64,000 bases of DNA from a virus (IMGVR_UViG_3300025141_015556), one strand, 5' to 3'; shown: positions 3 through 62,806, counted from the stretch's first letter. Translations and numbers: made by a program. The notes: generated by a model not told the origin, from the letters alone.

Positions 3-3000
3 TAAATTAGTTGGGTCTGCGGGGGCTACCGTGGCAGCATTCGCAAAATTAAGTACCGGTGTTTCAAATTTGCTTTGAATAAGCCATGCGGGTTGCTCTT
101 CGCCAGTTTCCGAATTAAATACGGGTACCCTCTGCTTAAGATTAAAACTCTCGGATACTTGCTGTGCAAAATAATACCCAATAGCGTCGGTGTAGTAGCC
201 CGCTTCCATGCTTCTATCATACACTTGTTCTAGATTTGTAAATATATCTTCTAGATCTGCCTTCCCTGTAAACGATGGAGTATAAACAAAATTTACTGTA
301 CCAGTGCCATTAAAATATGCCGGCGTGTGGGGAGCAAAGCTACACGAATGTCCGGTTTCCGAGTCACCGATCGGGATCTCGGCGAGCTGGTCGCCGCGAT
401 CTAGAACAAAGGGCGGCCCAAAGGCGCTTCCCCGCTCATACATTTCGAAACTGCTTCTATCGACATAATCATAGCTGGTCGCGTGCACATCGCTCTGCGT
501 ACCTACTGGATCTAAGGTTCTATACAAAGTGAGAGTCATCGCATATTTATCGCCTTGAGTAACCCCCTCACCACTGGGATCAAAATCATTTTCTCCTACC
601 GATTGAAAAGTGGTTAAATTTTGATTTTGCATGAAGAACTCAGTGACGCCGCATAACCAATTATCAATAGCAAGTTCATAAATCTTGCTTCCAAGGCCGT
701 TCCATATGGTTCCATTGTGAAGATAAGATCCGGCCGCGGCACGAACATTAATACTGTTGCCAGATAAACTAGCCGATCTTAATCCACAATCATAAATTTT
801 TCCTAATTCGGAACCACTAATTGCCTCGGCTTTTAGATGTTCTCTAGGTCTGTATAATGCTTCAAATGAAATTCTTTGAAAATCGTATGCGTTTTGCGAC
901 GCATTTTTATTGCTGTTGCCGCTTAAAACTGAATTGTTGCCATATTGAAATTTGCCCTCTGGTAAATCTAATCCAACGGCCGAATCGACCGCCTGGCCGC
1001 AGTTCGCTATATCCGGCTGTGTACTGGGCTCAGAGGCGGTGCAATACGTTACAAAACTGCCAACTGCAATGCCAGATTTAATGGTATTGTATAAGATTCC
1101 TGGTCCAAAAAGAGGATTCAACATTGCTCTAAATGCGGCCGGGTAATTGCCTGAAACATTATCGCCGTATGATTTTGAAAACAGAGTCGCTAATTCTAAA
1201 GTTCTTTCAACTGGGTAAAATCCCTTATATGGCAAAAATTGCTTGATCGCAGATGCTTCCAAGCGCAATTTGTGTCGTTTAATTGCAGTATTTTCTGTTG
1301 AATTTTTTTCAGCGCCGGGGCCCCGCCATTGCCGTCCATTTACATCTCCATCAATAACACTAAAATATTTAAAGAACTCGGCAGTCCCATAATGTTTATA
1401 AAAATTCTTCTCCGAACTGCTCGACAGAGCCGAGCCAGTCAAGTCAAATACATCATCATAATCGGTAAGCCAGTTTTCTTGGGCTGTGTCAACATAGTCC
1501 TCAATGTGTTCACTAATTCTAAATTCAGGAACTATTGTGTGGTCCTTACCAATAAGGCGCAAATATTGACAATAATCTTCATATGTTCTATAAGGCGCTC
1601 TACCACTTGAAGTAAGATTCCAAGCAGAATCTCCCCCTACAACAGTATTTTCGCCGCGGCTGCCGTTATAACCAACTGGTATTCGACTAGCATATACCGC
1701 ACTAGCGGTTATATCAAGATTGCCAGATAACCCGTACCAAGCGCTATTAGATTGTAATTCGCCGGCCCCATCTTTTATTCCTAATGAAGGAGGGGTGGTT
1801 CTAAAATTGGCATGGCCATCTAGAGGCCAAATACTAGCGCTATCAAGCGAATCCTTAATCGTTGGATGACCCATGGCGGTAGTTAGAGTGGTGGTAGTTC
1901 TGTTTATTCTAAGATCATCCCAAATATTGTCGATAAGATATTGTGTTCTCGCTCGTGTTGTATTTTGATATACATTAACCTCGCGAGGATAAATTCTTTC
2001 TTTATATTCTATTGCCGAATTGTTTGAAATCAAAGTTTTGTTTTTAAACCACTGATATGCAGGACTCAGTTTAATGTCTTTATGTAGATTTAGCCTATTG
2101 TTCAAACTTTCATTAGAAAAATAATCTAAGTTGTTCGCCCATGAGACACGCACATCGACGCCATTATATAAAAATAACACAGGATGATATCTTGACATGA
2201 TTGGCTGCTCGGTGTATCGATAGGCCGCATTGCCCTGTAGAGAGCGTACTGGAACCACTGTTGTTCCATGTTGATGGCTAAATATTCTAGGGTTGGATCT
2301 CACCGATAAAATGTTTCTTTCTCTTTGATATCGCGCGATAGGATGCTCCCCTGTTCTAATTCGTTTCCACATGGGATATTGATATGGTCCATTGCGATGA
2401 AGCATTAGTGCATTAAAATTACTTGCAATGTTGTCAAATCTCACGAAAGCGGTTGCACCAGCATGGGTTGTCGGCCTCAGCGCGACCATGACATTGTTAT
2501 TGGCAACCTCGGCCGCGTTATATCCCAACATATTGCCAGATGGATCTGCAGAACAGCTTATGGGCTCGTATACAATCAGGTTTAAGCCGACAAAATCGCG
2601 CGCGATACCCGGCATCGACTCGTCGGAGATCTCATGCGGCGCAATACCAGACGCACTCATAAGTGGCATGCTCGTAGGAAGACCAGCGCTTAATTCGGTG
2701 TATCCGAATAAAACAGCGCTAGCGGTCAAAGAAGAGGTAACCCAATGATATTGCCTTGCCGATTGTGGTATCGGATGTTGAATCCAACCGTTATCTTGAA
2801 CTGAGGCGGTTATAACATCGTTTGTGAGTGCGTCATAATATGTTAGTGGATCATTAGTAAACTCTAATCGAAGTTTTGTGTTACGTTGAATCTTGTGGTA
2901 TGAAGGATTAGATGATACATCCGGATGGGGATGGGCTTTAGTGCCGCGGCCATATAAATCATCCGGAGTGGGCGTAAATACCGGATCGCCGCCAAAGCGC

Positions 3001-6000
3001 GTTGAATGAAGACTAAGTAGCGTTCTAAGCCCTCTCCAGTGGTTCCCTTGATCTTGTGCCTCCATGGCGGTCCATGTTTCCTCTGAACCGCTAGTCATAC
3101 TAAATCCAATTAATCCTCTAACAGATAGATTTCTATAATTCAAGTTGTTATAGACGCTAAATTCTTCATGAGGCGGATCCAAATATCCCCTTGATTGTAC
3201 TTCAGGCGCCGCGGGCGATATAAATCTATTAACTATGATCGTTTTATTAGAATCGCTTCCCGTTCTTTCCGGTAGTTCATAATTTAAAGCACCACTGACA
3301 TTCGATGCAGCAACCCTGCCGCTGGTGCCCGCTTCAATAAGATTATTTCCTGTAAGAGGGAATCTGCCCCTTGTGGCCGTTGTTTCAGGGTTGATGGCAA
3401 AATCAAATGATTGATCCTGCCAAAATGGATCGTTTGAAGTTCTTCCGCAAGATTGTATAATTTCATAATTATGTGTATAGTTGCCTAAAACACTAGAACC
3501 GGTAGTGGATTGAATATTTTTAATATTAACCGGCCTCTTTGCCATCACTTCTCGATATCTATTTCCTTTCGGGCGGTCATACCTATATGGCGGCCTGTTT
3601 GGCTGAAGATCGCCACGTCGGGTGGTTGTGTCAATATCATCGACTTCAGGATATCGAGGGCCCACAATGCCCAAAGCGCCAGTCGTCGTCCAATCCGGTC
3701 TGGGACGCAGATCGAAATCAATGCCACAGAGAATTTTAAACCCTTCTGGCCTATCATCAGGAGAATCTAAATTATTGGGCCCACTTTTATCTGAATCATA
3801 TTTGTTTAATTCAACGTGCCTGTATTCCCTACCGCCTACCCAATGAGAAGTGAAGGGACTTTGTATCGGGGCTTCATAAAATTCTCCATATGTATCGCTA
3901 TGTAAATTGGTGACCATAACGCCTGAAGCAAAATTGTGAGCAATCTCGTGGTTATAACCGGTTTCCACAGACGAGCTATATAAACTAAATGGAGCAATAT
4001 TATTACCATCTGCGGTCAAATAATCATCATCTCCGGGTCGATTAATTTTTGCGTTCAGCTTAAACCCTAGACGCTGTTTCCTGTCCGGGTATACTACGTC
4101 AAGGGTCGGACGGAGTTGCTCGACTTCATCACCAAACGCCAACGCTATATTAGCAGGAATGTTGAAGCTCGGGTCAAGATCCATCAACGGGCCATCCGGG
4201 TGAGTTACAGAAAAAATAATATCTTTTCTTTTGCTCGTGTGATAATTCACTCCATGAATAACTGGCATTTCAGAAATAGAAAGCCTAAAAATGCTAGTTT
4301 GTTCTCGCCTGAAGCCGCCGGAAACTGCCGGGTACACGCCTTCGTCTGTACTGTTTCGCAGGATCTCTCGATATTTGTTAATTGTTGTTACGCCACCAAA
4401 ACATGTATCAGTCCTTATTGCACTGTCTTTCCACCAATCGTAGTTTGCTTTTTGCAAATCGGTGCAATCAACACTACTTACAGATTTGCCTAATTCGTCA
4501 GCTATTTCTTCCGCGACAGGCGCATGTTTAAAAAGCCACCCGCCCATGCGATCCTGGTCTGTCGGTATTATTCTGCCGGTTGGGGCCGCGGCATCGGCCA
4601 TCGCGGCACCCCCAGCGGCGGGCGCTAGCGTCAATGGCAACCATGCCTGAGCCATGCCTGCCGCAAGAGGATCTGGATCTTTAAAATCAGACATGGGGGC
4701 TTTGAATTGATATTTGTTTCTTTCTAAAACATGGCTTTCAATCATTGTATGAACTGATTCCGCCACATCTGCAGACGCCGGAACTAGTTGCTGCAGCATA
4801 ATTGATAAAGAACTATCGAACCATTTATAAAACTCATAGAACTTATCAAAATCGATTGTGTCGTTCTGGACACGTTCAAAAAACTTTTGGCGTGCGTGCG
4901 CCATCAATTTATAATCTTGTCGACGTTTATTGACCGGCTGACCAATTAAATTATGAATATCATGAATTGTGGCAAAATAATTCATTATTTCTTCTGAGAT
5001 ACTTTGATACAAGCTTTTTTCAAACGCGAAAGAATAATTTACTGGTCGAGTGCCCCTTATAAAAATATCTCTTTCGGTCCCGTCATAAACCGTAATCATA
5101 TCTTCTGATTGTAGGCTCTCCGGTAAATTTTGTCTAGAAATGCTAATGAATTCTTTATCTATGGCTTTTGTATCATCGGCAGCAAAACCATATCCTAGGC
5201 CCGGGTGCTTCCTGTTCAATATTGGGCCAAGCCAACCAAATTTGCTTGAACCAGGGCTCAGATCTGTACCCAGATTTGGGGCTCCATACATGTCGGTGGC
5301 CAGTGAGGGCTCGCCACCAACATAAGAACCAGAAGAAGCATCAACTACGGTAAATTCGCCATCGGCGTTGGAGCCGGTATTTTGATTAAAATCCCAATTT
5401 AATATTAAAGTATCTTGGGATAGAACCTCGCCAAAAGATGCAGACGGCAAGAATGGAAAAGCATTTTCATTTGTTCTATAGGTTCCGAAATCAAGAATAT
5501 TTTTAGCATGCGCTCTTTGGGCCTTTTCATTTATATCATCGAGCCATACTCTTAGCGATCCCACCTTTACATCAGAATTGTGTATCAGACTGCCAGTAAA
5601 ATTATTTCTATGAGCTCCAACAAAAAATCTTCGGGAGCCGGTTAAAAAGAGGGCGCCCGATAGGGGTGCTTGGGGTATCACCGCCGCGAGGCGGCTTGCG
5701 GCGGCCATATCATAAGCGTTCCCGCTAACAGAAAACTCATTTACAATGACGCCGCCTTCCATATTAATGCCGCGGAATTCTACAATGTAGTCATTTCCTT
5801 TGGTTCCGTTGGTAAAGCCGAGGGCGCCAGTTACAAGACCAACATAAGGATATTTTTCAGGCCGAACTCTTACAACGAAATTCCAATTACTATTATCGTA
5901 TACATCTGTAAACAATGAACTTGTTAATTCATTAACTTCCGTGGTCTCGTTTAGAGGAAGAAATGAAAGGCCATCGGCGGCGGTTCCAGATCTGATTAAT

Positions 6001-8315
6001 TTAAATTTGGCGTCAGCGCTCCCTAACTCGTCTCGACATGCCACTACTTGGAAATTTCCCGCATCCTGTATAGCGAATGTTGAATCCCAATGTTGATGTG
6101 AGGAACTGTGCACCCCAAAGATAGAAGCTGTTAAAAATTCTTTGTTTATAAAATGTTTTGAAATCCTATCTAACTTTGGTGGAAAAACAACATTAGCCTC
6201 AACAGTAAAGGCAAACCCGCTGGTTAAATTTGTGCTCCCGCTTATATAACTTGAAGATTGAAATACAGTCGCCTCAACAGAGCTTGATCTATTAAAATCA
6301 ACAAACCTTTTTGGTATAACTCGACTTGTCGCATTGTTTTGGAGTTCATATTCAATATTGTTAGCATACATATTAAACTTGATGAGCTCCTCATCAACAC
6401 CAAAACAACGAATTAGATTTCTAAAAGACTTTTCAGTGCCTTTAGATTTATAAATAAATGATAAATTATTATAGATGTTTTGATAAATTGTATTTTTAAC
6501 ATCAACCAACGATTTTTCGTATAGTCTCTCCTCCGAGCGATCCGCCAATTTTTCTATTATATCCGCATCAAGAAATATTTCCGGCGAGATTAAACCCGCA
6601 GATTCTAAAAGCCTATTTGCAAAAGTTAAAGGTTTATTGGTGCCGCTGGGGTATTGCACATCTTTTAGTTTATTTAGGGCCTCAATTTGAAGATGCAGGG
6701 AATCTAAATAGCTGCCCATTATCTGCGTTAATTTATGCAAATTTTTGGAACCCTCTTGGTCCTCTTCGGTAACCCAAGTCGGCATCGTATTATAAAGAGC
6801 CGCATTGTTGTTGACATCGTGATATGACCCAGAACCTTGTAGTTCGTTAGCCAGAGTTATAACGTCTGGATGAAACGAATAGATGATTGGATCTAAAAAC
6901 TCTTTTATAGCAGCAGAGGCTGAAACTATTGCCGACCCTGTGTTTCTAGAGTTGGAAGTGTATCCGGTCCAGGAGCCGTTTGTTACTCTTCCAGAAAAGT
7001 CTAGCACCGTATTATCAACAGAGCTTGTCCCAGTAATTCCTTCGTTGAATTTATAATAGACACCCAGCGTAGTATTGGCCAAGTTTAATGAAGAGCTATT
7101 TCCAGGAATGGGGTCTGAATTTGTGCCCCCTCCGACTTGATCGATCCAATGGCGCCCAATGTCTTTAGAACTTCTTTGGGTTTTCCAGTACCTGAATTCA
7201 TCCAAAGAAGCAGACAGTTTGCCAGAGCCGGCTTCGCCCCAAGAAGCCAAACGAGCCCCTCCAGAGGGAGCCGTCACCAGGGCCCCAATTCTTGCTTGCA
7301 TGGAACCAGTAATATTTTCAACTGGCGCTGAAGAACTAAATACCGCTTCGTTGTTTAATACACCATCAACATAAAATCTGCTTATCGTGCCCTGGACGAG
7401 AGCGGTCGTAGAGGCTGATAGAAAAGAGAATGCATAGTGGTGCCAATTACCATCGGCTATGGAGGCGCTCGTGAACGCTTGTCTTGCGCCGCCGCTCACC
7501 GGTACAGTACCAGTAAGCGGATTGGCCCATTGAAATCCACTAGTGCCCGATACAAGAGTTACTGTAAACCCTCCGTCAGTATTCCCCAACACATCTGGTG
7601 CATGCGATGCGGTTAATTCAATTCTAAACCTTCCATAGCCTGTGCTGCCGGAGTGTTCGCCGTTCCAAAGATCAAAAATTACTTCTTTTTTAGTTACTTG
7701 CGCGTCACCTAGAGTATTAAAATCTAGAAATCGATCTTTTTTCAACCAAAATTCTACCGTTACGCCTTTGTCTGCAATGTCCAAAGCAAGATTGTCAGTA
7801 CGATTGCTTGCGGTATGATAGTAATTTGAGCCCGTAAACTGTATGGAATAATCTCCCATCCCATTTGGATTGGTGTGGGGTCCTCCATAAAAAGAAATAT
7901 ATTCTTCGGTAGTTGGTAGGCCATATCCTTCAGAGGTCATCGAGCCGTTTAAGACGCCCCACCCATCCGCAGAAAGAGTTGCATATCCGTTCGTGCGAGG
8001 ATATCTATTTTCATATAAGTAAAGATCAACATAAGAGGAACTATTTTCCCACTCTAAACGTTCTTTTAACGAGCCGTCATATGGATAAGTTTTATATATT
8101 CTTTTTATTGCTTGATCATAGTATTCTTCTGCAGATCCATATTTTGCAAAATTAGCAGGGTCTGAAAAGTCTATGGTGGGAATAAATCGATTGTCTTTGA
8201 TGACGTCTTGTTCGTGATAACCAACAGATTCTACTTCTTCGGCTATTTGGTCGGCGCTAACATCGGCTAGCACCTTTGCTTTTTGCATTTGGTCAAAAAG
8301 TTCACGTAATGACAT
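3..8315 (-). CDS. Giant virion structural protein (>2,770 aa, runs off the left edge) with LamG/concanavalin-like domains and a baseplate wedge/tail-protein-I-like segment
   Basis: Absent from the ORF track, consistent with no in-frame stop inside the window. Manual translation from ATG at 8315 gives MSLRELFDQMQKAKVLADVS...FIPTIDFSDPANFAKYGSAEEYY...YPYDGS. LamG-like motifs GVTVEFWLK, WHHYAFSF, FYVDG, LDEFRYW; segment IYNNLSFIYKSKGTEKSFRNLIRCFG. The same frame is open at the window start (WLIQSKFETPVLNF). Lies directly downstream of baseplate genes. Confidence 0.85.
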   Translation of the reverse strand, partial: MSLRELFDQMQKAKVLADVSADQIAEEVESVGYHEQDVIKDNRFIPTIDFSDPANFAKYGSAEEYYDQAIKRIYKTYPYDGSLKERLEWENSSSYVDLYLYENRYPRTNGYATLSADGWGVLNGSMTSEGYGLPTTEEYISFYGGPHTNPNGMGDYSIQFTGSNYYHTASNRTDNLALDIADKGVTVEFWLKKDRFLDFNTLGDAQVTKKEVIFDLWNGEHSGSTGYGRFRIELTASHAPDVLGNTDGGFTVTLVSGTSGFQWANPLTGTVPVSGGARQAFTSASIADGNWHHYAFSFLSASTTALVQGTISRFYVDGVLNNEAVFSSSAPVENITGSMQARIGALVTAPSGGARLASWGEAGSGKLSASLDEFRYWKTQRSSKDIGRHWIDQVGGGTNSDPIPGNSSSLNLANTTLGVYYKFNEGITGTSSVDNTVLDFSGRVTNGSWTGYTSNSRNTGSAIVSASAAIKEFLDPIIYSFHPDVITLANELQGSGSYHDVNNNAALYNTMPTWVTEEDQEGSKNLHKLTQIMGSYLDSLHLQIEALNKLKDVQYPSGTNKPLTFANRLLESAGLISPEIFLDADIIEKLADRSEERLYEKSLVDVKNTIYQNIYNNLSFIYKSKGTEKSFRNLIRCFGVDEELIKFNMYANNIEYELQNNATSRVIPKRFVDFNRSSSVEATVFQSSSYISGSTNLTSGFAFTVEANVVFPPKLDRISKHFINKEFLTASIFGVHSSSHQHWDSTFAIQDAGNFQVVACRDELGSADAKFKLIRSGTAADGLSFLPLNETTEVNELTSSLFTDVYDNSNWNFVVRVRPEKYPYVGLVTGALGFTNGTKGNDYIVEFRGINMEGGVIVNEFSVSGNAYDMAAASRLAAVIPQAPLSGALFLTGSRRFFVGAHRNNFTGSLIHNSDVKVGSLRVWLDDINEKAQRAHAKNILDFGTYRTNENAFPFLPSASFGEVLSQDTLILNWDFNQNTGSNADGEFTVVDASSGSYVGGEPSLATDMYGAPNLGTDLSPGSSKFGWLGPILNRKHPGLGYGFAADDTKAIDKEFISISRQNLPESLQSEDMITVYDGTERDIFIRGTRPVNYSFAFEKSLYQSISEEIMNYFATIHDIHNLIGQPVNKRRQDYKLMAHARQKFFERVQNDTIDFDKFYEFYKWFDSSLSIMLQQLVPASADVAESVHTMIESHVLERNKYQFKAPMSDFKDPDPLAAGMAQAWLPLTLAPAAGGAAMADAAAPTGRIIPTDQDRMGGWLFKHAPVAEEIADELGKSVSSVDCTDLQKANYDWWKDSAIRTDTCFGGVTTINKYREILRNSTDEGVYPAVSGGFRREQTSIFRLSISEMPVIHGVNYHTSKRKDIIFSVTHPDGPLMDLDPSFNIPANIALAFGDEVEQLRPTLDVVYPDRKQRLGFKLNAKINRPGDDDYLTADGNNIAPFSLYSSSVETGYNHEIAHNFASGVMVTNLHSDTYGEFYEAPIQSPFTSHWVGGREYRHVELNKYDSDKSGPNNLDSPDDRPEGFKILCGIDFDLRPRPDWTTTGALGIVGPRYPEVDDIDTTTRRGDLQPNRPPYRYDRPKGNRYREVMAKRPVNIKNIQSTTGSSVLGNYTHNYEIIQSCGRTSNDPFWQDQSFDFAINPETTATRGRFPLTGNNLIEAGTSGRVAASNVSGALNYELPERTGSDSNKTIIVNRFISPAAPEVQSRGYLDPPHEEFSVYNNLNYRNLSVRGLIGFSMTSGSEETWTAMEAQDQGNHWRGLRTLLSLHSTRFGGDPVFTPTPDDLYGRGTKAHPHPDVSSNPSYHKIQRNTKLRLEFTNDPLTYYDALTNDVITASVQDNGWIQHPIPQSARQYHWVTSSLTASAVLFGYTELSAGLPTSMPLMSASGIAPHEISDESMPGIARDFVGLNLIVYEPISCSADPSGNMLGYNAAEVANNNVMVALRPTTHAGATAFVRFDNIASNFNALMLHRNGPYQYPMWKRIRTGEHPIARYQRERNILSVRSNPRIFSHQHGTTVVPVRSLQGNAAYRYTEQPIMSRYHPVLFLYNGVDVRVSWANNLDYFSNESLNNRLNLHKDIKLSPAYQWFKNKTLISNNSAIEYKERIYPREVNVYQNTTRARTQYLIDNIWDDLRINRTTTTLTTAMGHPTIKDSLDSASIWPLDGHANFRTTPPSLGIKDGAGELQSNSAWYGLSGNLDITASAVYASRIPVGYNGSRGENTVVGGDSAWNLTSSGRAPYRTYEDYCQYLRLIGKDHTIVPEFRISEHIEDYVDTAQENWLTDYDDVFDLTGSALSSSSEKNFYKHYGTAEFFKYFSVIDGDVNGRQWRGPGAEKNSTENTAIKRHKLRLEASAIKQFLPYKGFYPVERTLELATLFSKSYGDNVSGNYPAAFRAMLNPLFGPGILYNTIKSGIAVGSFVTYCTASEPSTQPDIANCGQAVDSAVGLDLPEGKFQYGNNSVLSGNSNKNASQNAYDFQRISFEALYRPREHLKAEAISGSELGKIYDCGLRSASLSGNSINVRAAAGSYLHNGTIWNGLGSKIYELAIDNWLCGVTEFFMQNQNLTTFQSVGENDFDPSGEGVTQGDKYAMTLTLYRTLDPVGTQSDVHATSYDYVDRSSFEMYERGSAFGPPFVLDRGDQLAEIPIGDSETGHSCSFAPHTPAYFNGTGTVNFVYTPSFTGKADLEDIFTNLEQVYDRSMEAGYYTDAIGYYFAQQVSESFNLKQRVPVFNSETGEEQPAWLIQSKFETPVLNFANAATVAPADPTNL

Positions 8316-8318
8316 TTT

Positions 8319-10385
8319 TTATTCTACTACTCTAAATTTAAACTCTTCTGGTTGTTCAACCCAAGAACCGATTGACGGATTGTAATAGCTAACCCTTATG
8401 CCATAGCTATAATCAGATTCTAGAAGATTAATATCTAGATCGAAATAATTGCCAGAAAGATCATGTGATAAATAAGTAGAATATTTACTACCGGTTCCAT
8501 ATGGCACCACAAACAAGTCATCAGTGGTCCTCATTATTTTATAAGACGCACTTATTATTGTTTTACTAGGCGTCGTAGCAGTTGCAACATTATAAATGGT
8601 AGGATTCCAATTTTTCTCTCTAACAAAAAATCGAAACCGAGCTGTATCTTTTCTAGAATACTCAGCCCTAAGATTGGTAATATTGGTTACGTATTCAAAT
8701 GTAGGGGCGATGGTGTGCGCAATTCTCTCTTTTGGTTCAAACGAGCTTGTGAGATAGCGTATGGCCTGTGAAGTGCCAGTATGCCATACATCAAAAACAG
8801 TTGTTAATGTTTCGCCGACCGTTAATGAATGCCCCCCCGTCAGAGCAAAACTGGCTGAATATACACCTGTCGACATGCGATTGCCTGTAATATTAGTGTC
8901 GCCGGCAGCGACGACGCCGCCGCCTATGGGCAAATTCAAAGCATCACCGGCGGGAGTAGAAGAGCCAGAATACAAGCTTACAAATATTTTATTTGTGGAT
9001 CCGAGCGTTGGAATATCCACTAAGCGGCCATTTACATAATTATACAAATATATTGAATTTAAATTATCAACGGCGGGTACTAATGCACTACTAAGAAATG
9101 TATTGCCGCGATCATCTTCTGTTCTGCTATCCCACCTAGCTTCAATTACCGGCCTTTTAAAGAAAAATTCCGTCGACCTGGAGAAGAACTTTTTGGTATA
9201 ATATGAAACGCTTCCTGATTCCAGCGACTCTATAAGCTTTATTCCTAAACCATAATTAGCATATCCCTCGCCCGGCGCCCCGCCCCACGCTCCAGAAAAC
9301 CAATGTTCCATAAGCCCGGTTATATCAATCTCTAAATCTTCATATCCTTTTGAAAAGCTAGCAGTGTAACTAAAATCAGTGGAAGATGTGTGGTATGAGC
9401 CGCCCGCTTGCCATGTGCCCCTATCGCCCGAAGACGAAAGTCCCGCGACAGTAAGATACTGTATTTGATTATAAGGCTGGCCTTCCGAGTCGGCCGAAAT
9501 GCCATGGCCGCCTGACTTTTGAATAAGATTGTTTGGGTCTTCACTAACCCAGCCAGAAAATACAGAAGAAGTGATCGCAACCCTGGGGCCATCAAGTGAT
9601 TGACTAGTAACAGTAAAATGGCCATCGGCGTGAGTATCACTAAACGCTTGAGGATAAGTACTAGCAGCATAATCTACCATACTCGCGGAAAACATTGCTC
9701 CGGAGAGAGCGTGGAAAAATTGGTCCGCAGTCCCCCCGGCAGCACCTGAAACAAAAATCGCATCCGTATCGCATCGTCCATCGTTTGAGGCGGTACCGAT
9801 TTGAAATTTGAAAACATGGCCATCGGCGCCGGTAACAAATATTTTTGATAATTCGCCAAAATTATTGGTAGCGTGCCCCTGTAAGGAACCAGAGGAAGTA
9901 TTACCCTTTTGGGGATCTGCCACGAACGATGCTTTGCGGCCTCTTCTCATCCAGTTGGAACCCGATTCGTTGTAAGTTAAATCGGTATAGTTATCCATAT
10001 CAAGTCCGGGGCCCTCTTGCCAGGAGGCAGAAACCGGCAAAAAAACTAATTGAAAATCTTGAGGTAGCGTAAATGGATGTTCGGCATTAAACATTTTAAG
10101 ATGGAAAGTAACGCTACCACTTGGAGGGATGCTTCCGGACGTACGACTAGCAGATATTTCTGTTGTCGGAAATTTAATAAGAATCCGGGACAATTCTCGA
10201 CTATTTCCAGCGCCGAGGCCTAGGCTATCATTAGTCGAAGAAGCAGACGCCTGTGCGTAAAGCATAAACACTTCTAAAGAATCGGCGGCGCCCATATTCG
10301 AGCCAGTGCCTCTGGTAACCAAATTTGGCTCAAACGCGTTGGTTACAGTATTATCGGCATCAGCAACCCATCTTTTAATACCCAT
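8319..10385 (-). CDS. Virion structural/baseplate-associated protein, 688 aa, beta-rich, possible DNRLRE-like carbohydrate-binding N-terminus
   Basis: Long S/T/G-rich ORF; SRILIKF...FHLKMFNA...VSASWQEG pattern; lies between the wedge gene and the giant structural gene. Confidence 0.6.
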   Translation of the reverse strand: MGIKRWVADADNTVTNAFEPNLVTRGTGSNMGAADSLEVFMLYAQASASSTNDSLGLGAGNSRELSRILIKFPTTEISASRTSGSIPPSGSVTFHLKMFNAEHPFTLPQDFQLVFLPVSASWQEGPGLDMDNYTDLTYNESGSNWMRRGRKASFVADPQKGNTSSGSLQGHATNNFGELSKIFVTGADGHVFKFQIGTASNDGRCDTDAIFVSGAAGGTADQFFHALSGAMFSASMVDYAASTYPQAFSDTHADGHFTVTSQSLDGPRVAITSSVFSGWVSEDPNNLIQKSGGHGISADSEGQPYNQIQYLTVAGLSSSGDRGTWQAGGSYHTSSTDFSYTASFSKGYEDLEIDITGLMEHWFSGAWGGAPGEGYANYGLGIKLIESLESGSVSYYTKKFFSRSTEFFFKRPVIEARWDSRTEDDRGNTFLSSALVPAVDNLNSIYLYNYVNGRLVDIPTLGSTNKIFVSLYSGSSTPAGDALNLPIGGGVVAAGDTNITGNRMSTGVYSASFALTGGHSLTVGETLTTVFDVWHTGTSQAIRYLTSSFEPKERIAHTIAPTFEYVTNITNLRAEYSRKDTARFRFFVREKNWNPTIYNVATATTPSKTIISASYKIMRTTDDLFVVPYGTGSKYSTYLSHDLSGNYFDLDINLLESDYSYGIRVSYYNPSIGSWVEQPEEFKFRVVE

Positions 10386-12212: not shown

Positions 12213-12617
12213 TTAGGTTCCCGATTCACTTATTTGTAAAAATGTTGCTATCTGTAAAGGCAAAATAGTAAAGAATATTGTCATAGATATAAATGATGGA
12301 TCAAAGCCTTCGCCGACAGAGGCAGGGTTAAATTCTATATCATCTACGGCTATATAGGGTAAGTATTCTCCCACTTGACTGTGTATTCTCTCTGTTATAT
12401 CGGAGTATGTCATGACGGTATTTGGCTGAAATAAATACCCTCTTAGGCCCACCCCAAAGCGCGGCCTCATAATGCGTTCCCCGGGATTAGTCAGCAGAAG
12501 CATCTTAAGATTTTGTTTTGCTAAATCTTCAAAGGTTGTGTTTAAATTATAAGCTCCAAAGGTAGGATCAACCGTTAATGGCAGCGCTACTGATAATCCT
12601 TCATTATTTGTTGGCAT
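12213..12617 (-). CDS. Baseplate wedge / sheath initiator, gp25 (GPW_gp25) family
   Basis: KQNLKMLLLTNPGERIMRPRFGVGLRGYLF motif; 134 aa; adjacent to the gp6-like gene. Confidence 0.9.
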   Translation of the reverse strand: MPTNNEGLSVALPLTVDPTFGAYNLNTTFEDLAKQNLKMLLLTNPGERIMRPRFGVGLRGYLFQPNTVMTYSDITERIHSQVGEYLPYIAVDDIEFNPASVGEGFDPSFISMTIFFTILPLQIATFLQISESGT

Positions 12618-12670: not shown

Positions 12671-15600
12671 CTAATTTCCCGTACCTAATCCCCCACCGCT
12701 CAGGTACACTGGCTCTTCCTCTTCGGCGGCAGGTTCGTCTTCTGTGTGCGTTGGCCCCTCGTCTATACAACTGGCATCTTCTTCGGTCGGCTCATTATCG
12801 ACTATACCGCCTTCCATATTGTACTCTGGTATCAAATTCAGCAATAAATAAATAATACCGAAGGGCCCTGGTGGCGGGAAGAACAGGGCGGGTAATGTGC
12901 CGGTAAAATCAATCCCATTAATCCCAAAGTGGGGAAACAATCCAGGCGGCGCGGGGGGCTTCAAGCCACCCGGCTCAGCACAATTTTCCAGTCTATCCTC
13001 TGGAGATTCTCCATTCCACGGCGCCTTATCGAGGTCGACACCAATGCCGCGCAGCTTTCTATTTAATTGACAGAATAGTAGAAGAATAAGAGATCTAGCA
13101 TCTATGGTTACTGCGGAGAGGGGTGGAGGAAGCGTCGCCATCGCAGTATCAATAGCATCTATGAGTTGCATCAAAACTTGACCTGTGATATCTCTGACTA
13201 TTTTCCAAATAGCCACATGAGGATCCAGGATCTCTGCCAAGCCCTTAACGATACGAATTGGTGTCATACGTAGCGCATTGAGTATAAAGCCCTGTGCGTT
13301 AAACCCACGGGCCTTCGATCCAGCCATGGCACCCTGTAAGTAATCAATGGTTATTGGCCCTTCGCTTGGTCGCAATCCGGCGTCTGGTGAACAAACTGCA
13401 GTAGCAAATATATTGGCAGCCGTATCCATTGGATCACTAAAGGCTCTAGAGATCTGATTAGAAAATTTCTGTTCTGTTAACAAAAAGGAATTCATCAACA
13501 CTGATGTAAGTACTTGTTGTCTATCGAACACTTTAGTAAAAAACGTTTGAAATATTGGGGAATCTTTAACATTTTGTACATGGTTTACCCCTTGCAATTG
13601 CATTATATACCCCACGTTTCCTTGGATAGCGGTGTAGCCCGGGGGGGGCCCACTACCGCCCGGGCCGCCGGGAATAGACATAGGGTCGCCGCAAGGATCA
13701 AGCATCGTGCCGCCGCTGGAGGAGCCCTTAGATAAGAGATCGGCCATCGCCTGATCCAGAATCTCGAGATCGCCCAACATCGCGTCTCCTAAGCATTGGG
13801 TACCACACTCAAATAAAGGAATCCCAACTGTTTTAAAATTATCCAGGGGGGCGACATCCTGTTCATTGCCTCGGCCGGTGGTATCGCTCAGTGCTAAATA
13901 TGCCTCTTCAAAATTCAAAATAGAATTAAGTCTATTTACATTTATGTCATCGAACTCTGTCATCGACTCCATTCGTTGCAAATGAAACACAGTATCATAT
14001 AGTGGCCATAACAGGTTATTTTTCGGATCCCCCCAGCCCCCTATTCCAAAGCCTTCGTGCGATGTGGAATCCTCAAAAGGCGGATAATAAACAAGTTTAT
14101 AAGTTAGTCGTAAATTTATTAATTGAATTGTGGAGTTCCACACACCGAGGAAGTTGGAATCCCCATCTAGCCATCTAATCATTTTTTCTAAAGACATACT
14201 TGTCTGATATTTTGGACCAGAATTGGTTTGATAGGCTGCATCCGGATGAGGATTATTTGTAGCGGTTAGTCGCACTTCGCTTTGAATGTTCTGATAATCG
14301 TCGCTGCCGGCATGTGATGAGCCAGGGTAGGGCGAGTCGACCGCAGCGATCGCGATTTGGTCGACCCAATGATATAAATATGGAACCGGATCCTCTTCTC
14401 CGGTGGTCTTATCGATAAATCTAACTTGATCCCATCTCATAATCTTTTCAAGCTTAAACCCGCCATACCCCATTAAATCAATATTTTTTTCTAGCTCTGG
14501 ATGTATTGCAAGGTGAAGATCCTGGGGCAATCTGGATATATTGTCAACGCCAGCAATAAAAGGTTCAGAAAAGCCTATAACATCCTCAATGAAAACCTCT
14601 TCTACTGACTTAGTGGCATTTTTGGAAATTATATTTTGCATAGCCATGGCAGAATCTAATATTCTCTGTATCAAAATATATCTAACGGAATTACCCTCCT
14701 CCAAGAGTTCGGCTTCATGGCCCGGACCTATTCCCAAAACCTCTAATATGCGGGGATCAAAATTCCGATCCGGGCGATTATATTTTCTTGCTATATAGTT
14801 ATTGGCAACGTTTGTAAAAACAGTTTCAAATGGGCTGTATTCTGGTCCGAATTGTCCTTCAAGCGCTCTGGGTATATTAATACGAAGTGAAGGATCCTGT
14901 ATATATGTTTTAAAATTTCTATATATGGAGTTCAACACCTGATCTACAACCGCCGGATTTTGCCACAAATCCTCAAGTTTAAACGCAGACAATATAAAAA
15001 CATTTTTAAGAAAGAACTGAGCAATAAATAATTGCATAAGGATCAGAACGGAAGCATACTGAACACAATTTAATACAACTTTACGCTGCGGAGTACTGTC
15101 AGAACAGCTCCCCTCATCATATTCTTGTTGTACTCTCTTTATTATTCCATTAAGGTCCATAAGATCGCCAATTTTTTGAGGATCATTTTGGCACTCTGAA
15201 TTATCTTTTACAAAAACAGCCTTCAACAATTTTGCAGCGGTAAATGTTCCATTTTCTAAACAATAGTTAGTCAATTGTTTTACTAGGCCGGCCTGGGCTG
15301 AATAGTAATATTGATTTTGAAGAGCATTATAGTATTTATTCGAAGCCGCATTCGCATCTACGGTATCGACTGCGAGGCCGGCCGTTGAGTCCTGGGATCC
15401 GCCCGTCTGGCTCCAGCCAGCAGTCTCAAGTACAGAATAGTCTTTCAAAAACGAATTGAGAGAATTATAGGCCAAACTAGCAAACGCCCCGGCGCCCGGG
15501 TTCGCATTAATATTCTCCCAGCTGCGTCCGAGCCCCGTATCAAAGGCGGCGGGGCCAAAAACGTCAAGAAACTCTGTTTTGCTGTATAGTTGTCCATTGC

Positions 15601-18600
15601 TGGTTACAGCCGGATCGAAATGTCTACCGCCGGTAAAAGAAGTGGTGGTAATGTATTTCTCAGCCGGAAGAGCATTATTAATTGTATCATTAGAAAGGTG
15701 CTGAATAGTTTGATAGGCGGTGCTCGCGGGAGTGCTGGGCGCTCCTAAAGTATATTGCGTAATGCTGCTTGTTGGCGCGCCGGCCGGGGTGACCGCGGAC
15801 CCGGCGCCCATGGATGTGCCTGGTGGCGCTGAAGAACCTTGAAGAGGTACCTCGTCGGCAAGAGTCATTACCGTGCTCATGTTTTTGGACGACGGAAGCG
15901 CGGGCGGCGGCGGATTATCGATCAAGTCGAATTTAGTAGAGTATACATCCCACGATTCGGGACCAGTGGCTTGCGAGAAAGCGACGGTTTTAGAGAATGT
16001 CGGAAACCATTGGAAAGTTTTCTTCGAGTCGAGTTCGAAGAACGGTCTGAGAGTAGCCATGGACGGCATGAATTCATCCACTCCCGTGCGGACAGACCGC
16101 GGAAACCTATAAGAAACGCTTGGAAGAGGTTTTGTATGATCAAGGTTGGTGAGATCTTCTCCCAGTTGTGTTAATGCCGAAGCATCAAAATTTTCAAATA
16201 CCGCGGCCAGTGCATCAAGAACTGCTCGCAAGTTTTCAACACCTCCAAAAACATCCTGAATGTCGGGACATGGGAATTGGGCTTGGGCCGACTCGGGGTT
16301 TTGAAAAAACTCGTTTATATTGTCTTCTAAATTCCCTGCCTGGTCGCTGACCGAGTTGATGCCATTCATCATATCTTCGAAGGCCTCACTAATATCGTCC
16401 ATAAGAGGCCCAGGATCCGGTGGGTCGGCCTCCTCGAACTGCCCCTGGCCCTCCAGGCCGGCGGCGCACATGGCTATGTTCTTATTTTGACCCATCACCG
16501 GCTCTAATAAAATTGATTTTGTTGCTTCGGCTGCAAAATAAAGCGGGCCGGCTACAGCCTCCACCAAAGTACTAATAAGTTGTGGAATTGAATGATCTAC
16601 TAGTGGGTTGGGAATATAATTCGGCTTTATGGGGCAAGTCAAATTAATATCGGGTATCGGTATTTCAAGCCCATTTTCTAACATATCCAGAAGATTATCA
16701 ATATTTTCTCTGTCAACGCTGTTTAGTACCTGTTCCTCTGTCAAACAAAGATCATCTAACCTTGGAGCTATACCATCTAAAACCTCTTCACACATGGAGG
16801 ACGTATCTATAAGATTGCCCAAGCAACTGAAGAAAGTGCCAACTAGTGAAGTGGAATTTAAGCTGTACCTGATTTGGTTCTCTGCATACAAGGCACTAAA
16901 ATTTGTCACCTCGTTTAATACTAGGGAAGTGGCGGTACCCTTTAGAAGCTGACACAACTCAGAGGGCCTTAATATTCCTGAAACATCAGAAAGATATTTC
17001 ATGCCCACATCTTGCGAAATTAAAAAGTCTGAAAAACAAGCAGCCGACCCTACGGGTTGTCCCAGTAGACTTGGTTCATTGAGTCTAGGATCTTTCGCTT
17101 TAAACATATTGGCTAAATTTAATTGCCCATAGTCGCCCGAGCCGGCCAGATCTTTTTCGGCGCATGCTTCTCTTATAAGTTCAACTATGCCCATCACCAA
17201 GCCTTTAACTATGCCCAATAACACGTCAATTAGCATTTTTCGTATCATTTCATGTATGTTTCCGTCAATAGAAAAAAAGCTTAAATCAATTTCTAATGTG
17301 GGCATTTTAGGCACTTTTGGTTTTCTTGGTTTTTCAAAAAAGTTTTCTGCATTTGATATAAAATCTTTTATATCCGATCTTATATCATTAAATTGAAAAG
17401 TAGAATTAAATATTAAACATCGAAGAGCCTCTTTTATGAGCATGTCGAGACCCGTCTTATTGAGCACCTCTTTAAAAATTTGCATACCCTCGGAATTTTG
17501 AAATTCCCTCATCTTATTCATTACTTTTTTAACAGCATCTTCAACATCTTTTTCCGTACGTTCCAACTCGGTACTTAAAATAAATTCTTGATTTGTGGGG
17601 TCATGGAGAACGGCCGTCCGGGCTCGCAGTTGGGGGAAAGTTAGATGTAAGGTTTTAGTTCCCGCGGGGATTTTTGCAATAGTGCCGTCACCTAAAACGG
17701 CGCTCATGCCCTCCTCTGGGATATCAACCGCCTGGGCAAGTCCGTAGCTGGCCAAAGTTTCTAACACCTCTCCGGCTGGGGCGGTATGCGATGGGCCACA
17801 ATATAATATGTGATATGTTCGCATTACAGAGTTGGCAATTCTGTTTATAAAAAATTGAAATTTTCTAGAGGGAGACTCCGAGTTTAAACCTCTTGATATA
17901 GACAACATGTCTCCCCACCTGTTTAAATAAACCATAGTCTGGAAATTTGTAAACGGTTCCGAATCCAGCGCTGATAAATAACCAACTACTACTTGCCTGT
18001 GGATACCGGTTCTAGACATAAGCATGCTTATAATTTGATACCGATCATTAAATATTATCTGGATGTCGTCTTCGGGTGTTGGGTTTTCAAGCCCATTCAA
18101 AGACAATAGATTTCCTAACGACGAAATCGTTTCAGAAAGTCTCAGCGACTCCTGTTCAAGATTCATTCCGGGTGTTATTTGACCATCAAATTCTTTAATT
18201 TGAGTGTCGTACATGCCCATAAGTTGGTTTATTGTTTGCAACTCTGAATCAACAGCCGACCAGTTTAAAATCAGTGCGGAGGGGGTGTTGCCGGGGGCGC
18301 TCAAGACAATTTGGCGAGATTCATTCCAATAATCCAGCGCATACGAAAAATTAGGAAAGTAGGGGAAAGAAGTAAATTCAAGAGTAGTCACCTTTTCGCC
18401 CAAATGTCTTTCCCGCAGAGTCAAAGTATCGTCGGGGCAAATTTTTGTAAGAGGAAGAGACTCTAAGAAGTTGGGGTCTAAAAATTGTGCAAGCTCGTCT
18501 CTTCTTATCCAAGACGGATTCTGGAAAATGGGATTATCAATAGATCGATTGGCGAGAGCCATTGTTTCGCTCATTCCAACATATACTTTATAGGTACTTC

Positions 18601-18940
18601 CGGGGCGCCCCCCTTTTCTATATTCTTTAACATGGAGCGCGCTTCTAATAATACTGAATATTGTGGCGGCATTACTGATAGATGCAGAAATCAACTCAGA
18701 AGGTAGCCCGGATGCTGCTTGAGAAAAGGCGCTAGGATCGATATATGGAAACCACAACTCAGGAAAATAAAATTTAAGGAATTCAACGGTAGCCAGATCA
18801 GTTAAAACATCAGTACGGCCGGTAACTTCAATTTCTTCTGCATAATCAGTTAATAGAACAATATTGTTTATACCATTGTTTACTAACGGCAAATTTATCT
18901 CTTTATAAAACCAATCTGTTGTAATGTTTGTGTTTGGCAT
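12671..18940 (-). CDS. Very large (2,089 aa) virion-associated protein of unknown function
   Basis: Uninterrupted ORF within the baseplate module; acidic, largely helical, scattered Cys; hydrophobic Pro-rich C-terminal segment (FFPPPGPFGIIYLLLNL). Confidence 0.6.
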   Translation of the reverse strand: MPNTNITTDWFYKEINLPLVNNGINNIVLLTDYAEEIEVTGRTDVLTDLATVEFLKFYFPELWFPYIDPSAFSQAASGLPSELISASISNAATIFSIIRSALHVKEYRKGGRPGSTYKVYVGMSETMALANRSIDNPIFQNPSWIRRDELAQFLDPNFLESLPLTKICPDDTLTLRERHLGEKVTTLEFTSFPYFPNFSYALDYWNESRQIVLSAPGNTPSALILNWSAVDSELQTINQLMGMYDTQIKEFDGQITPGMNLEQESLRLSETISSLGNLLSLNGLENPTPEDDIQIIFNDRYQIISMLMSRTGIHRQVVVGYLSALDSEPFTNFQTMVYLNRWGDMLSISRGLNSESPSRKFQFFINRIANSVMRTYHILYCGPSHTAPAGEVLETLASYGLAQAVDIPEEGMSAVLGDGTIAKIPAGTKTLHLTFPQLRARTAVLHDPTNQEFILSTELERTEKDVEDAVKKVMNKMREFQNSEGMQIFKEVLNKTGLDMLIKEALRCLIFNSTFQFNDIRSDIKDFISNAENFFEKPRKPKVPKMPTLEIDLSFFSIDGNIHEMIRKMLIDVLLGIVKGLVMGIVELIREACAEKDLAGSGDYGQLNLANMFKAKDPRLNEPSLLGQPVGSAACFSDFLISQDVGMKYLSDVSGILRPSELCQLLKGTATSLVLNEVTNFSALYAENQIRYSLNSTSLVGTFFSCLGNLIDTSSMCEEVLDGIAPRLDDLCLTEEQVLNSVDRENIDNLLDMLENGLEIPIPDINLTCPIKPNYIPNPLVDHSIPQLISTLVEAVAGPLYFAAEATKSILLEPVMGQNKNIAMCAAGLEGQGQFEEADPPDPGPLMDDISEAFEDMMNGINSVSDQAGNLEDNINEFFQNPESAQAQFPCPDIQDVFGGVENLRAVLDALAAVFENFDASALTQLGEDLTNLDHTKPLPSVSYRFPRSVRTGVDEFMPSMATLRPFFELDSKKTFQWFPTFSKTVAFSQATGPESWDVYSTKFDLIDNPPPPALPSSKNMSTVMTLADEVPLQGSSAPPGTSMGAGSAVTPAGAPTSSITQYTLGAPSTPASTAYQTIQHLSNDTINNALPAEKYITTTSFTGGRHFDPAVTSNGQLYSKTEFLDVFGPAAFDTGLGRSWENINANPGAGAFASLAYNSLNSFLKDYSVLETAGWSQTGGSQDSTAGLAVDTVDANAASNKYYNALQNQYYYSAQAGLVKQLTNYCLENGTFTAAKLLKAVFVKDNSECQNDPQKIGDLMDLNGIIKRVQQEYDEGSCSDSTPQRKVVLNCVQYASVLILMQLFIAQFFLKNVFILSAFKLEDLWQNPAVVDQVLNSIYRNFKTYIQDPSLRINIPRALEGQFGPEYSPFETVFTNVANNYIARKYNRPDRNFDPRILEVLGIGPGHEAELLEEGNSVRYILIQRILDSAMAMQNIISKNATKSVEEVFIEDVIGFSEPFIAGVDNISRLPQDLHLAIHPELEKNIDLMGYGGFKLEKIMRWDQVRFIDKTTGEEDPVPYLYHWVDQIAIAAVDSPYPGSSHAGSDDYQNIQSEVRLTATNNPHPDAAYQTNSGPKYQTSMSLEKMIRWLDGDSNFLGVWNSTIQLINLRLTYKLVYYPPFEDSTSHEGFGIGGWGDPKNNLLWPLYDTVFHLQRMESMTEFDDINVNRLNSILNFEEAYLALSDTTGRGNEQDVAPLDNFKTVGIPLFECGTQCLGDAMLGDLEILDQAMADLLSKGSSSGGTMLDPCGDPMSIPGGPGGSGPPPGYTAIQGNVGYIMQLQGVNHVQNVKDSPIFQTFFTKVFDRQQVLTSVLMNSFLLTEQKFSNQISRAFSDPMDTAANIFATAVCSPDAGLRPSEGPITIDYLQGAMAGSKARGFNAQGFILNALRMTPIRIVKGLAEILDPHVAIWKIVRDITGQVLMQLIDAIDTAMATLPPPLSAVTIDARSLILLLFCQLNRKLRGIGVDLDKAPWNGESPEDRLENCAEPGGLKPPAPPGLFPHFGINGIDFTGTLPALFFPPPGPFGIIYLLLNLIPEYNMEGGIVDNEPTEEDASCIDEGPTHTEDEPAAEEEEPVYLSGGGLGTGN

Positions 18941-31893: not shown

Positions 31894-32290
31894 CCCAGCT
31901 TATCTCCCAGTCTTTAAACTCCGCTGCCAAACAATCAATTTTATAATCTTTTCTACCGCCGGCAACTTCTTGAATTTTGTTTTTTGCTGTGTTTCTAATT
32001 CCATTAAGGCCGTGAGTAAGTTCAAGATTATTACCATCCTTAATGCCTTTTCGATAGTTTGATTCGTTATGCCAAATATGCAAATTCATTTGTGACAATA
32101 CAACAACCGATCTAATCAATTTGGCATCAACCGAACCACAGTCCGGGAGCAATAAGTCTATATCATGACAAATATCATTTATTTCCTGCGCATACTGCTC
32201 CTTGTTCTCGGACAAAAACACTTCCTTAAGCTGCACAATAGACAATCTATCTATCAACTCAGACAACGTGGGCAAATATTTCCTACTCAT
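31886..32290 (-). CDS. Hypothetical helical protein of the glycan locus
   Basis: ELIDRLSIVQLK...N..IWH.E...R...N..R...KNKI pattern; coupled to neighbours. Confidence 0.6.
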   Translation of the reverse strand: MSRKYLPTLSELIDRLSIVQLKEVFLSENKEQYAQEINDICHDIDLLLPDCGSVDAKLIRSVVVLSQMNLHIWHNESNYRKGIKDGNNLELTHGLNGIRNTAKNKIQEVAGGRKDYKIDCLAAEFKDWEISWDG

Positions 32291-54894: not shown

Positions 54895-55344
54895 TTATAT
54901 GATGTTGGCAGCAGAAGCAATCATGTGCCAGTGGCCATCATTGGTCGTATCGGAATGTGCTCTATAAACAAAGATTGCACCACCGTTATTACCGGCCTTC
55001 AGCGTAGTGTCGCCATCGGCAATACCCCAAATTGGGGCGCCCACTACAGTCCCAGGAGTGAGGGTTGTGGATTTGAAGGTCAGAGCCTGGCCCACTGAGC
55101 CTGTCTGACAAACAAATAAAACTTGGCCATCGCGACCACCGTTAAAGCCATTAATATTACATGCCGCAACCGAAGCCGAGACCCACAATACACTAGCATT
55201 AGTGACGTCTGGTTGGAAAGCGTTGACCGTGGTGCTGGATGTCAGTGCACCGGCAATTGCCAGAGACCCGCTTAAAGTAACCTTTTGATCCCCGATAAAG
55301 ATATCATTCATTTTTCTTAATACATTAACTGCTCTTTTGCTCAT
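54895..55344 (-). CDS. Putative small virion structural/decoration protein
   Basis: Beta-rich, S/T/G/A-rich 149 aa with four [ST][GAS]S motifs; CTATATA motif upstream and strong terminator downstream. Confidence 0.5.
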   Translation of the reverse strand: MSKRAVNVLRKMNDIFIGDQKVTLSGSLAIAGALTSSTTVNAFQPDVTNASVLWVSASVAACNINGFNGGRDGQVLFVCQTGSVGQALTFKSTTLTPGTVVGAPIWGIADGDTTLKAGNNGGAIFVYRAHSDTTNDGHWHMIASAANII

Positions 55345-58233: not shown

Positions 58234-58252
58234 TTTTTCTTTCGTGTTAGAT

Positions 58253-62266: not shown

Positions 62267-62267
62267 T

Positions 62268-62519: not shown

Positions 62520-62521
62520 GA

Positions 62522-62791: not shown

Positions 62792-62806
62792 TATTTTATC
62801 TCCTTG

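Follow-up and report, generated by a model that had tools for sequence, protein, structure and literature searches.

An ordered Ser/Thr-small-Ser tripeptide concentrated in tail-peripheral proteins of a Far-T4 phage as a candidate O-glycosylation acceptor signal

The 64,000-nucleotide stretch of IMGVR_UViG_3300025141_015556 analysed here (the window) is a single long minus-strand gene array from an uncultured marine T4-like phage. Within it the tripeptide [ST][GAS]S, that is Ser or Thr followed by Gly, Ala or Ser and then by Ser, is concentrated in a small set of tail-peripheral proteins and may serve as an acceptor signal for glycosylation by phage enzymes. In the order of transcription, the array opens with a PIN–PhoH fusion, a SpoU methylase and small open reading frames (ORFs), followed by a Cas4-like PD-(D/E)XK nuclease and two glycosyltransferases of family GT4. 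About 23 kb of sugar-nucleotide and tailoring genes come next, including GT2, GT10, NeuB, a CMP-transferase and a Maf/MptE-like protein. The baseplate operon completes the series, encoding an M23 peptidase, a 335-residue protein, a 2,089-residue protein, gp25, a gp6-like wedge, a 688-residue protein and a giant protein (Table 1).

Because its sheath, capsid and gp6 are closest to those of Microcystis phage Mel-JY01, Flavobacterium phage immuto and Rhodothermus phage RM378, its nearest cultured relatives, the window phage is assigned on sequence grounds to the "Far-T4" group (Roux et al. 2015, PMC4360716). Its T4-like core virion genes are nearest those of RM378 and uncultured aquatic contigs, and PhoH, given as a Far-T4 marker (PMC4360716), is present. 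Comparisons extend to related contigs, among them G001–G010 (G1 being G001, complete) and G4, to 79 IMG/VR relatives and to cultured phages, with T4, S-B64, Mosig and SP-15 as negative controls. Results for capsid, sheath, neck-adaptor and tape-measure proteins come from the genomes of the relatives rather than from the window.

Table 1. Features of the window, with motif counts given as observed versus expected (2,000 composition-preserving shuffles per ORF)
Feature	Coordinates	Strand	Assignment or evidence	[ST][GAS]S
Giant tail-peripheral protein, 2,771 residues seen, C-terminus beyond the window	3–8315	-		43 vs 9.8, z = 10.7
688-residue protein, encoded just after gp6	8319–10385	-		21 vs 5.2, z = 7.2
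gp6-like wedge, 599 residues	10385–12184	-	PHROG baseplate wedge	0 vs 1.9
gp25	12213–12617	-	Pfam GPW_gp25	0 vs 0.2
2,089-residue protein	12671–18940	-		4 vs 4.5
Variable sugar-nucleotide/tailoring island	23179–46279	-	Pfam	
GT10	32283–33200	-	Pfam	
CMP-transferase (CTP_transf_3)	39387–40115	-	Pfam	
NeuB	40112–40951	-	Pfam	
Maf/MptE-like protein (PF01973)	40948–41889	-	Pfam	
GT2	44677–45438	-	Pfam	
Second GT4-like protein, 432 residues	46279–47577	-	Weak Pfam GT4 matches; distant paralogue of the first	
Conserved GT4, 437 residues, E-x7-E present	47574–48887	-	Pfam Glycos_transf_1 and GT4-conflict	
PIN-domain–PhoH fusion, 444 residues	50570–51904	-	Conserved at 50–62% identity in G1 and G4	
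149-residue protein	54895–55344	-	Atlas structural neighbours	4 vs 0.62, z = 4.4
Small paralogous ORF	55803–56366	-	Matches one G1 gene	
Small paralogous ORF	57152–57700	-	Matches one G1 gene	
Small paralogous ORF	57697–58317	-	Matches one G1 gene	
Ala-rich ORF	62807–64000	-		

Three proteins carry the excess, namely the giant, the 688-residue and the 149-residue protein, and no further ORF stands out in the per-ORF shuffles across the window. The original prediction, made from the sequence by eye, had estimated about 21 motifs against roughly 4 expected in the 688-residue protein, many more in the giant protein and four in the 149-residue protein, and the computed values agree; the enrichment also holds under the composition-preserving tripeptide test that had been suggested for it. 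Taken alone, the 149-residue case is weak, since its P value of 0.0024 (100,000 shuffles) becomes 0.13 after correction for 55 ORFs. The enrichment is protein-specific, as had been claimed: the 52 remaining ORFs, when pooled, hold 17 motifs against 23.2 expected, and the gp6-like wedge and the 2,089-residue protein, in which none and about three had been noticed, show no excess.

The signal depends on both the identity and the order of its residues. When all 8,000 tripeptides are scored without bias against the composition of each protein, SAS, TGS, SGS and TAS come out on top, in that order, in the two large proteins. Since [ST][GAS]T shows no excess in the giant protein (7 versus 7.4 expected), position 3 is Ser and not Thr. 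TAS occurs 9 times (7+2) against no SAT (0+0), and TGS occurs 11 times (9+2) against 3 for SGT (3+0). Permutations of the same residues are not enriched, nor are variants with T, N, D, P or V as the middle residue. Among 515 sites from the window and its GT4-positive relatives, the residue at position -1 is hydrophobic in 51% (1.6-fold), in line with the early impression that the motif often follows a hydrophobic residue, and the residue at +1 is hydrophobic in 56% (1.75-fold). Aromatic residues are enriched at -2, whereas charged residues at -3, -1 and +1 and proline at +1 are under-represented.

It is very improbable that this pattern is a statistical or compositional artefact of Ser/Thr/Gly-rich composition, low complexity or hidden repeats. 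The enriched proteins are indeed rich in Ser, Thr, Gly and Ala, and the marginal 149-residue case would fit such an origin, but the excess persists under shuffles inside 10-, 20- and 40-residue blocks, so that local composition does not explain it, and permuted or reversed motifs remain flat. As originally described, the sites are dispersed and do not form low-complexity tracts: their spacing is irregular, and BLAST finds neither internal repeats nor homology among the enriched protein families, ruling out hidden repeats or a shared domain at that level. A DNA-level cause is likewise ruled out, because codons are used alike inside and outside the motif and the 68 nine-mers include 62 different sequences, placing the signal at the protein level. 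The excess is moreover replicated in 79 relatives and three cultured phages.

The giant protein comprises a helical N-terminal region followed by LamG/pentraxin-like jelly-roll domains in its AF2 model. These jelly rolls lie within its first 1,000 residues, and Foldseek matches them to pentraxin, LamG and carbohydrate-binding jelly rolls; together with a sub-threshold Pfam match to Laminin_G_3 (E = 4e-5), the folds agree with the LamG label given earlier. By 250-residue blocks, 26 sites fall within residues 1–1000 and density is moderate in residues 1500–2500. A stretch of about 440 residues (~1001–1440) between richer parts holds 0–1 site and may represent a buried or anchoring region.

In the 688-residue protein, the confidently modelled C-terminal half forms tandem FN3/Ig-like beta-sandwiches (AF2 and Foldseek). 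Its core carries 14 sites against 3.4 expected, and an insert (residues 128–322) carries 7 against 1.8. This insert of about 195 residues is specific to the window, being missing from the ~500-residue homologues; it is poorly modelled and weakly similar (E = 0.002) to a neck-adaptor-like 414-residue protein of G4 that is likewise enriched. Nucleotide and protein searches of the cultured-phage collection gave no match to the 688-residue gene, and PHROG and Pfam provide no family for its product, for the 149-residue protein or for several other enriched proteins. The 149-residue protein is probably a small tail-fibre or tail-tip beta-sandwich protein, judging from Atlas structural neighbours that include gp53-like C, depolymerase C-terminal and gp9/10-like domains; no homologue of it is found in G1 or G4.

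In the relatives, the sheath, a neck-adaptor-like protein and a fibre-like paralogue family are also enriched. The four enriched sheaths together hold 42 sites, every one of them within the variable N-terminal two-thirds and none in the conserved C-terminal domain. In T4 gp18, this conserved C-terminal domain forms the inner layer of the sheath. The major capsid protein, gp6 and gp25 are enriched in no genome, and the tape measure of G1 is likewise unenriched. The glycan coat on exposed virion proteins that had been proposed thus keeps its support for tail-peripheral proteins and loses it for the virion as a whole, since a capsid that is never enriched implies no coat over the entire particle.

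The fibre-like paralogues (G1 90448–93638; Mel-JY01 172489–181432; immuto 91310–93397) share a common C-terminal domain of ~100 residues joined to variable N-terminal parts. Most members are motif-enriched; the RM378 member (416 residues) is not. A non-virion protein, the DnaB-like helicase, has 3–4 sites against 0.5 expected in G1 (147111–148466; L088:7111–8466) and in G4 (46153–47646; L094:6153–7646); these are probably conserved catalytic-core tripeptides and not the tail signal.

An unmodified structural or physico-chemical feature is an unlikely explanation of the motif, be it a beta-strand cap, the tight packing of a small residue flanked by two hydroxyls, or an effect on surface hydration or against aggregation. 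Such a feature would suit the hydrophobic or aromatic flanks, the beta-rich character of the enriched proteins and the many sites that border or occupy strands. Of 31 motifs in confidently predicted parts of the two models, 12 sit at the edge of a strand, 3 lie inside one, 12 fall in loops and 4 in helices. The remaining Ser/Thr residues, however, are distributed alike (Fisher P = 1.0), so the motif is not one structural element. A single context such as a turn or strand cap is accordingly unsupported, and the expectation that the sites would be confined to surface loops fails on the same count. The enriched families span unrelated folds (FN3-like, LamG-like, fibre-tip-like, sheath and neck adaptor), and the analogous FN3-, LamG- and fibre-rich giants of T4, S-B64, Mosig and SP-15 stand at expectation. 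In addition, the directionality and the requirement for Ser rather than Thr at position 3 are hard to obtain from surface chemistry alone.

Evolutionary comparison bears on the same question. All 79 of 79 IMG/VR relatives of the 688-residue protein (40–55% identity) show a 3–5-fold excess, and the giant ORF downstream of the orthologue shows the same 3–5-fold excess in those relatives. In an alignment of 55 homologues of the 688-residue protein, about 8 sites are kept in >75% of sequences, a point in favour of a structural role. These conserved sites swap inside the motif class (TAS/SSS/TGS; SSS/SGS; SAS/TAS/SCS), and dozens of further columns carry the motif only sporadically. Giant orthologues at 37–41% identity coincide at 6–11 of ~19–25 sites and sheath pairs at 1–3 of ~10, while comparison with immuto or Mel-JY01 leaves 0–2 coinciding sites with the excess kept in each protein. 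A fold-determined motif would keep its positions, unlike the turnover seen here; steady density with positional turnover is as expected from selection on site number, in the manner of modification sites. Selection therefore appears, from these alignments, to act on motif density rather than on position.

The motif is accompanied throughout the lineage by the GT4 pair. The 437-residue GT4 is 58–60% identical in G001–G005 and present in G006–G010, and thus occurs in 10 of 10 related contigs. Within the cultured-phage collection, its long matches (70–93% of the query) are confined to immuto, Mel-JY01, RM378 and the uncultured LR756508, with only a weak partial match in Synechococcus phage S-CBS4. 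Both paralogues keep E-x7-E, which is invariant in the first (E285-x7-E293). The 432-residue protein shares 23% identity with the first GT4. A check of G1, G4 and the three cultured phages gave homologues in G1, G4, immuto and Mel-JY01 and only a marginal N-terminal match in RM378. The order PD-(D/E)XK nuclease, GT4, second ORF is conserved, the second ORF being annotated as a glycosyltransferase only in immuto. The closest solved relative of the 437-residue enzyme in a profile search is chlorovirus NY-2A B736L (3oy2, E = 3e-11), aligned over its full length with residues 4–397 on 2–390. These features make the 437-residue GT4 a candidate for the protein-attaching (initiating) transferase.

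Enrichment co-occurs with phage glycosyltransferases across the relatives and is absent from the four T4-like phages without them. The proteome-wide ratio of observed to expected motifs is 1.62 in G1, 1.69 in G4, 1.74 in immuto, 1.76 in RM378 and 1.56 in Mel-JY01, all of which carry the GT4 pair, versus 1.36 in S-B64, 1.39 in Mosig, 1.17 in T4 and 0.95 in SP-15, which do not. Giant, fibre and baseplate proteins of the controls lie at expectation (T4 gp34, 4 versus 3.9; T4 gp7, 1 versus 1.7; S-B64, 19 versus 15.1; SP-15, 15 versus 15.7). The ratio T[GA]S:S[GA]T, counted in protein sets chosen independently of the motif, is 50:17 in G1, 42:26 in G4, 66:43 in immuto and 28:9 in RM378, against 23:23, 25:40, 4:5 and 5:9 in the four controls. 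The GT4 pair appears to be the sole lineage-wide gene tracking the motif in this non-exhaustive search.

Among the Ser/Thr-rich ORFs of Mel-JY01 (PP395634.1), at least one encodes a massive SGT/TSG/GTS repeat (SGT 98 versus 15.6 expected). This tandem Ser-Gly-Thr repeat has a different pattern from the motif and distorts the motif-asymmetry statistics of that phage.

The large glycan island that had been reported near the enriched genes is present and consists of soluble enzymes. In addition to the genes in Table 1, it encodes a PfkB kinase, two DegT proteins, RmlC, a split transketolase, a B12 radical-SAM protein, short-chain dehydrogenases/reductases (SDRs), a sulfotransferase, methyltransferases and an aminotransferase. 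A Kyte-Doolittle scan of the island proteins reveals no polytopic membrane protein, which fits a soluble cytoplasmic pathway, and the island contains no export machinery. Its content varies: G4 shares most of it, and G1 shares only NeuB and one epimerase. The motif excess is present in G002 (100% complete), G003, immuto, Mel-JY01 and RM378 although none of them carries the Maf-like gene (PF01973), which rules that gene out as a lineage-wide motif reader. Given their variability, neither it nor the bulk of the sugar pathway is the factor that the enriched phages share. Of the readers originally proposed, the GT2, GT4 and Maf transferases of the island, the GT4 pair (46279–48887) is always present, whereas GT2, Maf and the island as a whole are not common to the enriched relatives. 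G1 had seemed to be an equally enriched relative without glycan genes; it lacks a close Maf homologue, yet it carries an island of its own with NeuB, an epimerase and the GT4 pair beside the nuclease, as well as a divergent MptE-like gene. No TibC/Aah-family (BAHT) heptosyltransferase turned up in the Pfam scans of the island, although no search aimed at BAHT was made, and the acceptors in the window are not beta-helix repeats, unlike BAHT acceptors.

A reader other than a glycosyltransferase is improbable, slightly more so than the structural explanation. Under this alternative, the motif would direct phosphorylation, acylation or binding of an assembly chaperone or attachment factor, and the GT4 pair would act on the host surface, a small molecule or DNA. 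Directionality and selection on density imply macromolecular recognition without specifying which kind, and the pair adjoins the Cas4-like nuclease and DNA-metabolism genes. GT4 enzymes also commonly act on lipids or small molecules, and the PDB matches include BshA-like and PimA-like enzymes. Against this, Pfam and PHROG searches of the island, the 50–62 kb ORFs and selected structural ORFs found no protein kinase, acyltransferase or fibre chaperone, and the island has no export machinery for a host-surface product. DNA as the target is weakened by immuto, in which liquid chromatography–mass spectrometry shows fdPreQ1 replacing dG, with no glycosylated base reported (PMC10516641). The lineage-wide co-occurrence of the GT4 pair with the motif, within the limits of a non-exhaustive search, likewise speaks against separate roles for the two.

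We favour, by a modest degree, the reading that hydrophobic-[Ser/Thr]-[Gly/Ala/Ser]-Ser-hydrophobic is an O-glycosylation acceptor signal on tail-peripheral proteins, read by the GT4 pair and bearing a variable glycan. The stricter form, in which the motif is a genuine linear sequon for O-glycosylation and its reader, the GT4 pair, is core to the Far-T4 phages, with a constant code and island-specific glycans, is a real possibility that we hold less firmly and stop short of favouring. In the host cytoplasm, the soluble 437-residue GT4 (47574–48887) would read the ordered peptide on baseplate-distal, fibre, sheath-surface and neck proteins and add the first sugar to a Ser hydroxyl, perhaps together with its paralogue (46279–47577). 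Variable island transferases, here GT2, GT10 and the Maf-like protein, would then extend the glycan, using island-made nucleotide sugars as donors, among them a CMP-nonulosonic acid made by NeuB and the CMP-transferase. Across the lineage the acceptor code would remain constant while the glycan differs between phages. The motif statistics, the directionality, the restriction to the outer tail, the density kept despite turnover and the co-occurrence with the GT4 pair are direct observations; from them we infer that the motif is modified at all, which Ser is used, which enzyme initiates and a coat function in protection, anti-fouling or host interaction.

Several points weigh against O-glycosylation. 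It is read from sequence and co-occurrence rather than from chemistry, and all GT4-positive phages belong to one deep lineage, Far-T4, making the association effectively a single evolutionary event that could be coincidental; no GT4-negative Far-T4 member that could serve as a control from inside the lineage was found. Enrichment is lacking in the major capsid protein, although no virion protein is more exposed, and several highly conserved sites in or at beta-strand edges with hydrophobic flanks may be partly buried. RM378 is GT4-positive but weakly enriched (sheath 2 versus 1.8), its second GT4 being barely recognisable. The controls are not at zero, with one or two ORFs each at z >= 3, and the motif is not depleted from cytoplasmic proteins outside the virion. 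GT4 enzymes, finally, use many acceptors other than proteins.

Searches of the literature gave no earlier account of a motif of this kind in phages. To our knowledge, phage-encoded virion glycosylation is known from few systems only, without a known acceptor rule, and bacterial cytoplasmic O-glycosylation, for example of flagellins, is described as lacking a consensus sequence. The nearest precedent is the mycobacteriophages, whose virions are glycosylated by phage-encoded glycosyltransferases (Freeman et al. 2023, Cell Host Microbe, as cited in PMC12619734). By that account, the two systems share soluble glycosyltransferases of their own (here two GT4s, GT2, GT10 and a Maf-like protein by Pfam) and virion acceptors (here proposed), and the mycobacteriophage glycan is thought to shield the particle. 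By the same account, the mycobacteriophage glycans are chemically proven and decorate the C-terminal ends of the capsid and tail-tube subunits. In contrast, the window offers a dispersed, predicted tripeptide on tail-peripheral proteins, with an unenriched capsid, in a Far-T4 myovirus with a large sugar-biosynthesis island.

Maf flagellin systems (Aeromonas, PMC9290775; Clostridium botulinum, PMC11339370) perform cytoplasmic O-glycosylation of Ser/Thr with nonulosonic acids on a folded structural protein. Aeromonas Maf1 modifies hydrophobic-flanked S-x-S doublets in flagellin, for which "no known consensus sequence" is given (PMC9290775). The apolar-flanked Ser/Thr sites are thus common to both settings, and the window encodes a Maf/MptE-like protein, NeuB and a CMP-transferase. 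The middle residue is Leu or Ile in Aeromonas, however, against Gly, Ala or Ser in the window motif, and Maf needs flagellin features. The Maf-like gene is also missing from equally enriched relatives, so that transferase and sites do not co-occur.

Streptococcal GtfA/GtfB are paired soluble transferases acting on Ser-repeat adhesins. Similarly, SdgA/SdgB and GtfC/GtfD glycosylate Ser in short motifs of staphylococcal SD repeats (PMC5230774). Two adjacent soluble transferases, a cytoplasmic location and a very short Ser motif are features shared with the window, where they are predicted. The adhesin acceptors are long tandem low-complexity repeats, whereas the window sites are dispersed in folded domains. 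The GT4 pair shows no sequence similarity to GtfA/GtfB, neither of which appears among its PDB matches (phmmer and profile search), and both phage paralogues keep E-x7-E.

The chlorovirus-encoded B736L, a GDP-mannose-binding GT-B enzyme, is proposed, although unproven, to act on the capsid glycan (PMC4691112). Chloroviruses and the window phage both encode soluble enzymes and sugar-nucleotide pathways proposed for virion glycosylation without host endoplasmic-reticulum or periplasmic machinery. In chloroviruses, N-linked glycans occupy capsid Asn residues that share no sequence pattern, whereas the candidates in the window are Ser-based, lie on tail proteins and follow a clear pattern. An N-linked capsid glycan does not correspond to what is found in the window lineage, in which the capsid is unenriched and the motif contains no Asn.

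If correct, the stricter form would provide the first defined short sequon for cytoplasmic protein O-glycosylation, and phage tails would possess a sugar coat as open to diversification as bacterial O-antigens. A short, ordered acceptor motif maintained in evolution would also make glycosites predictable from sequence alone, supply a compact tag-and-enzyme pair for glyco-engineering and explain large sugar-biosynthesis islands without export genes in a globally abundant marine and freshwater phage lineage. Three GT4-positive relatives in culture (immuto, Mel-JY01 and RM378) make the idea directly testable.

Further features of the window lie outside this argument. The 2,089-residue protein has no tblastn match in G1 or G4, and G1 carries a 2,522-residue ORF in the same position (5 motifs versus 4.3 expected); it looks like a hypervariable giant baseplate-region protein that is not motif-enriched. 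GC content is 53% in 62001–64000 versus ~40% in the rest of the window, and the Ala-rich ORF belongs to no Pfam family and is unmatched in both G1 and G4. The three small paralogous ORFs all match the same G1 gene (~9118–9642), and two of them show weak matrixin-like (Peptidase_M10) matches.

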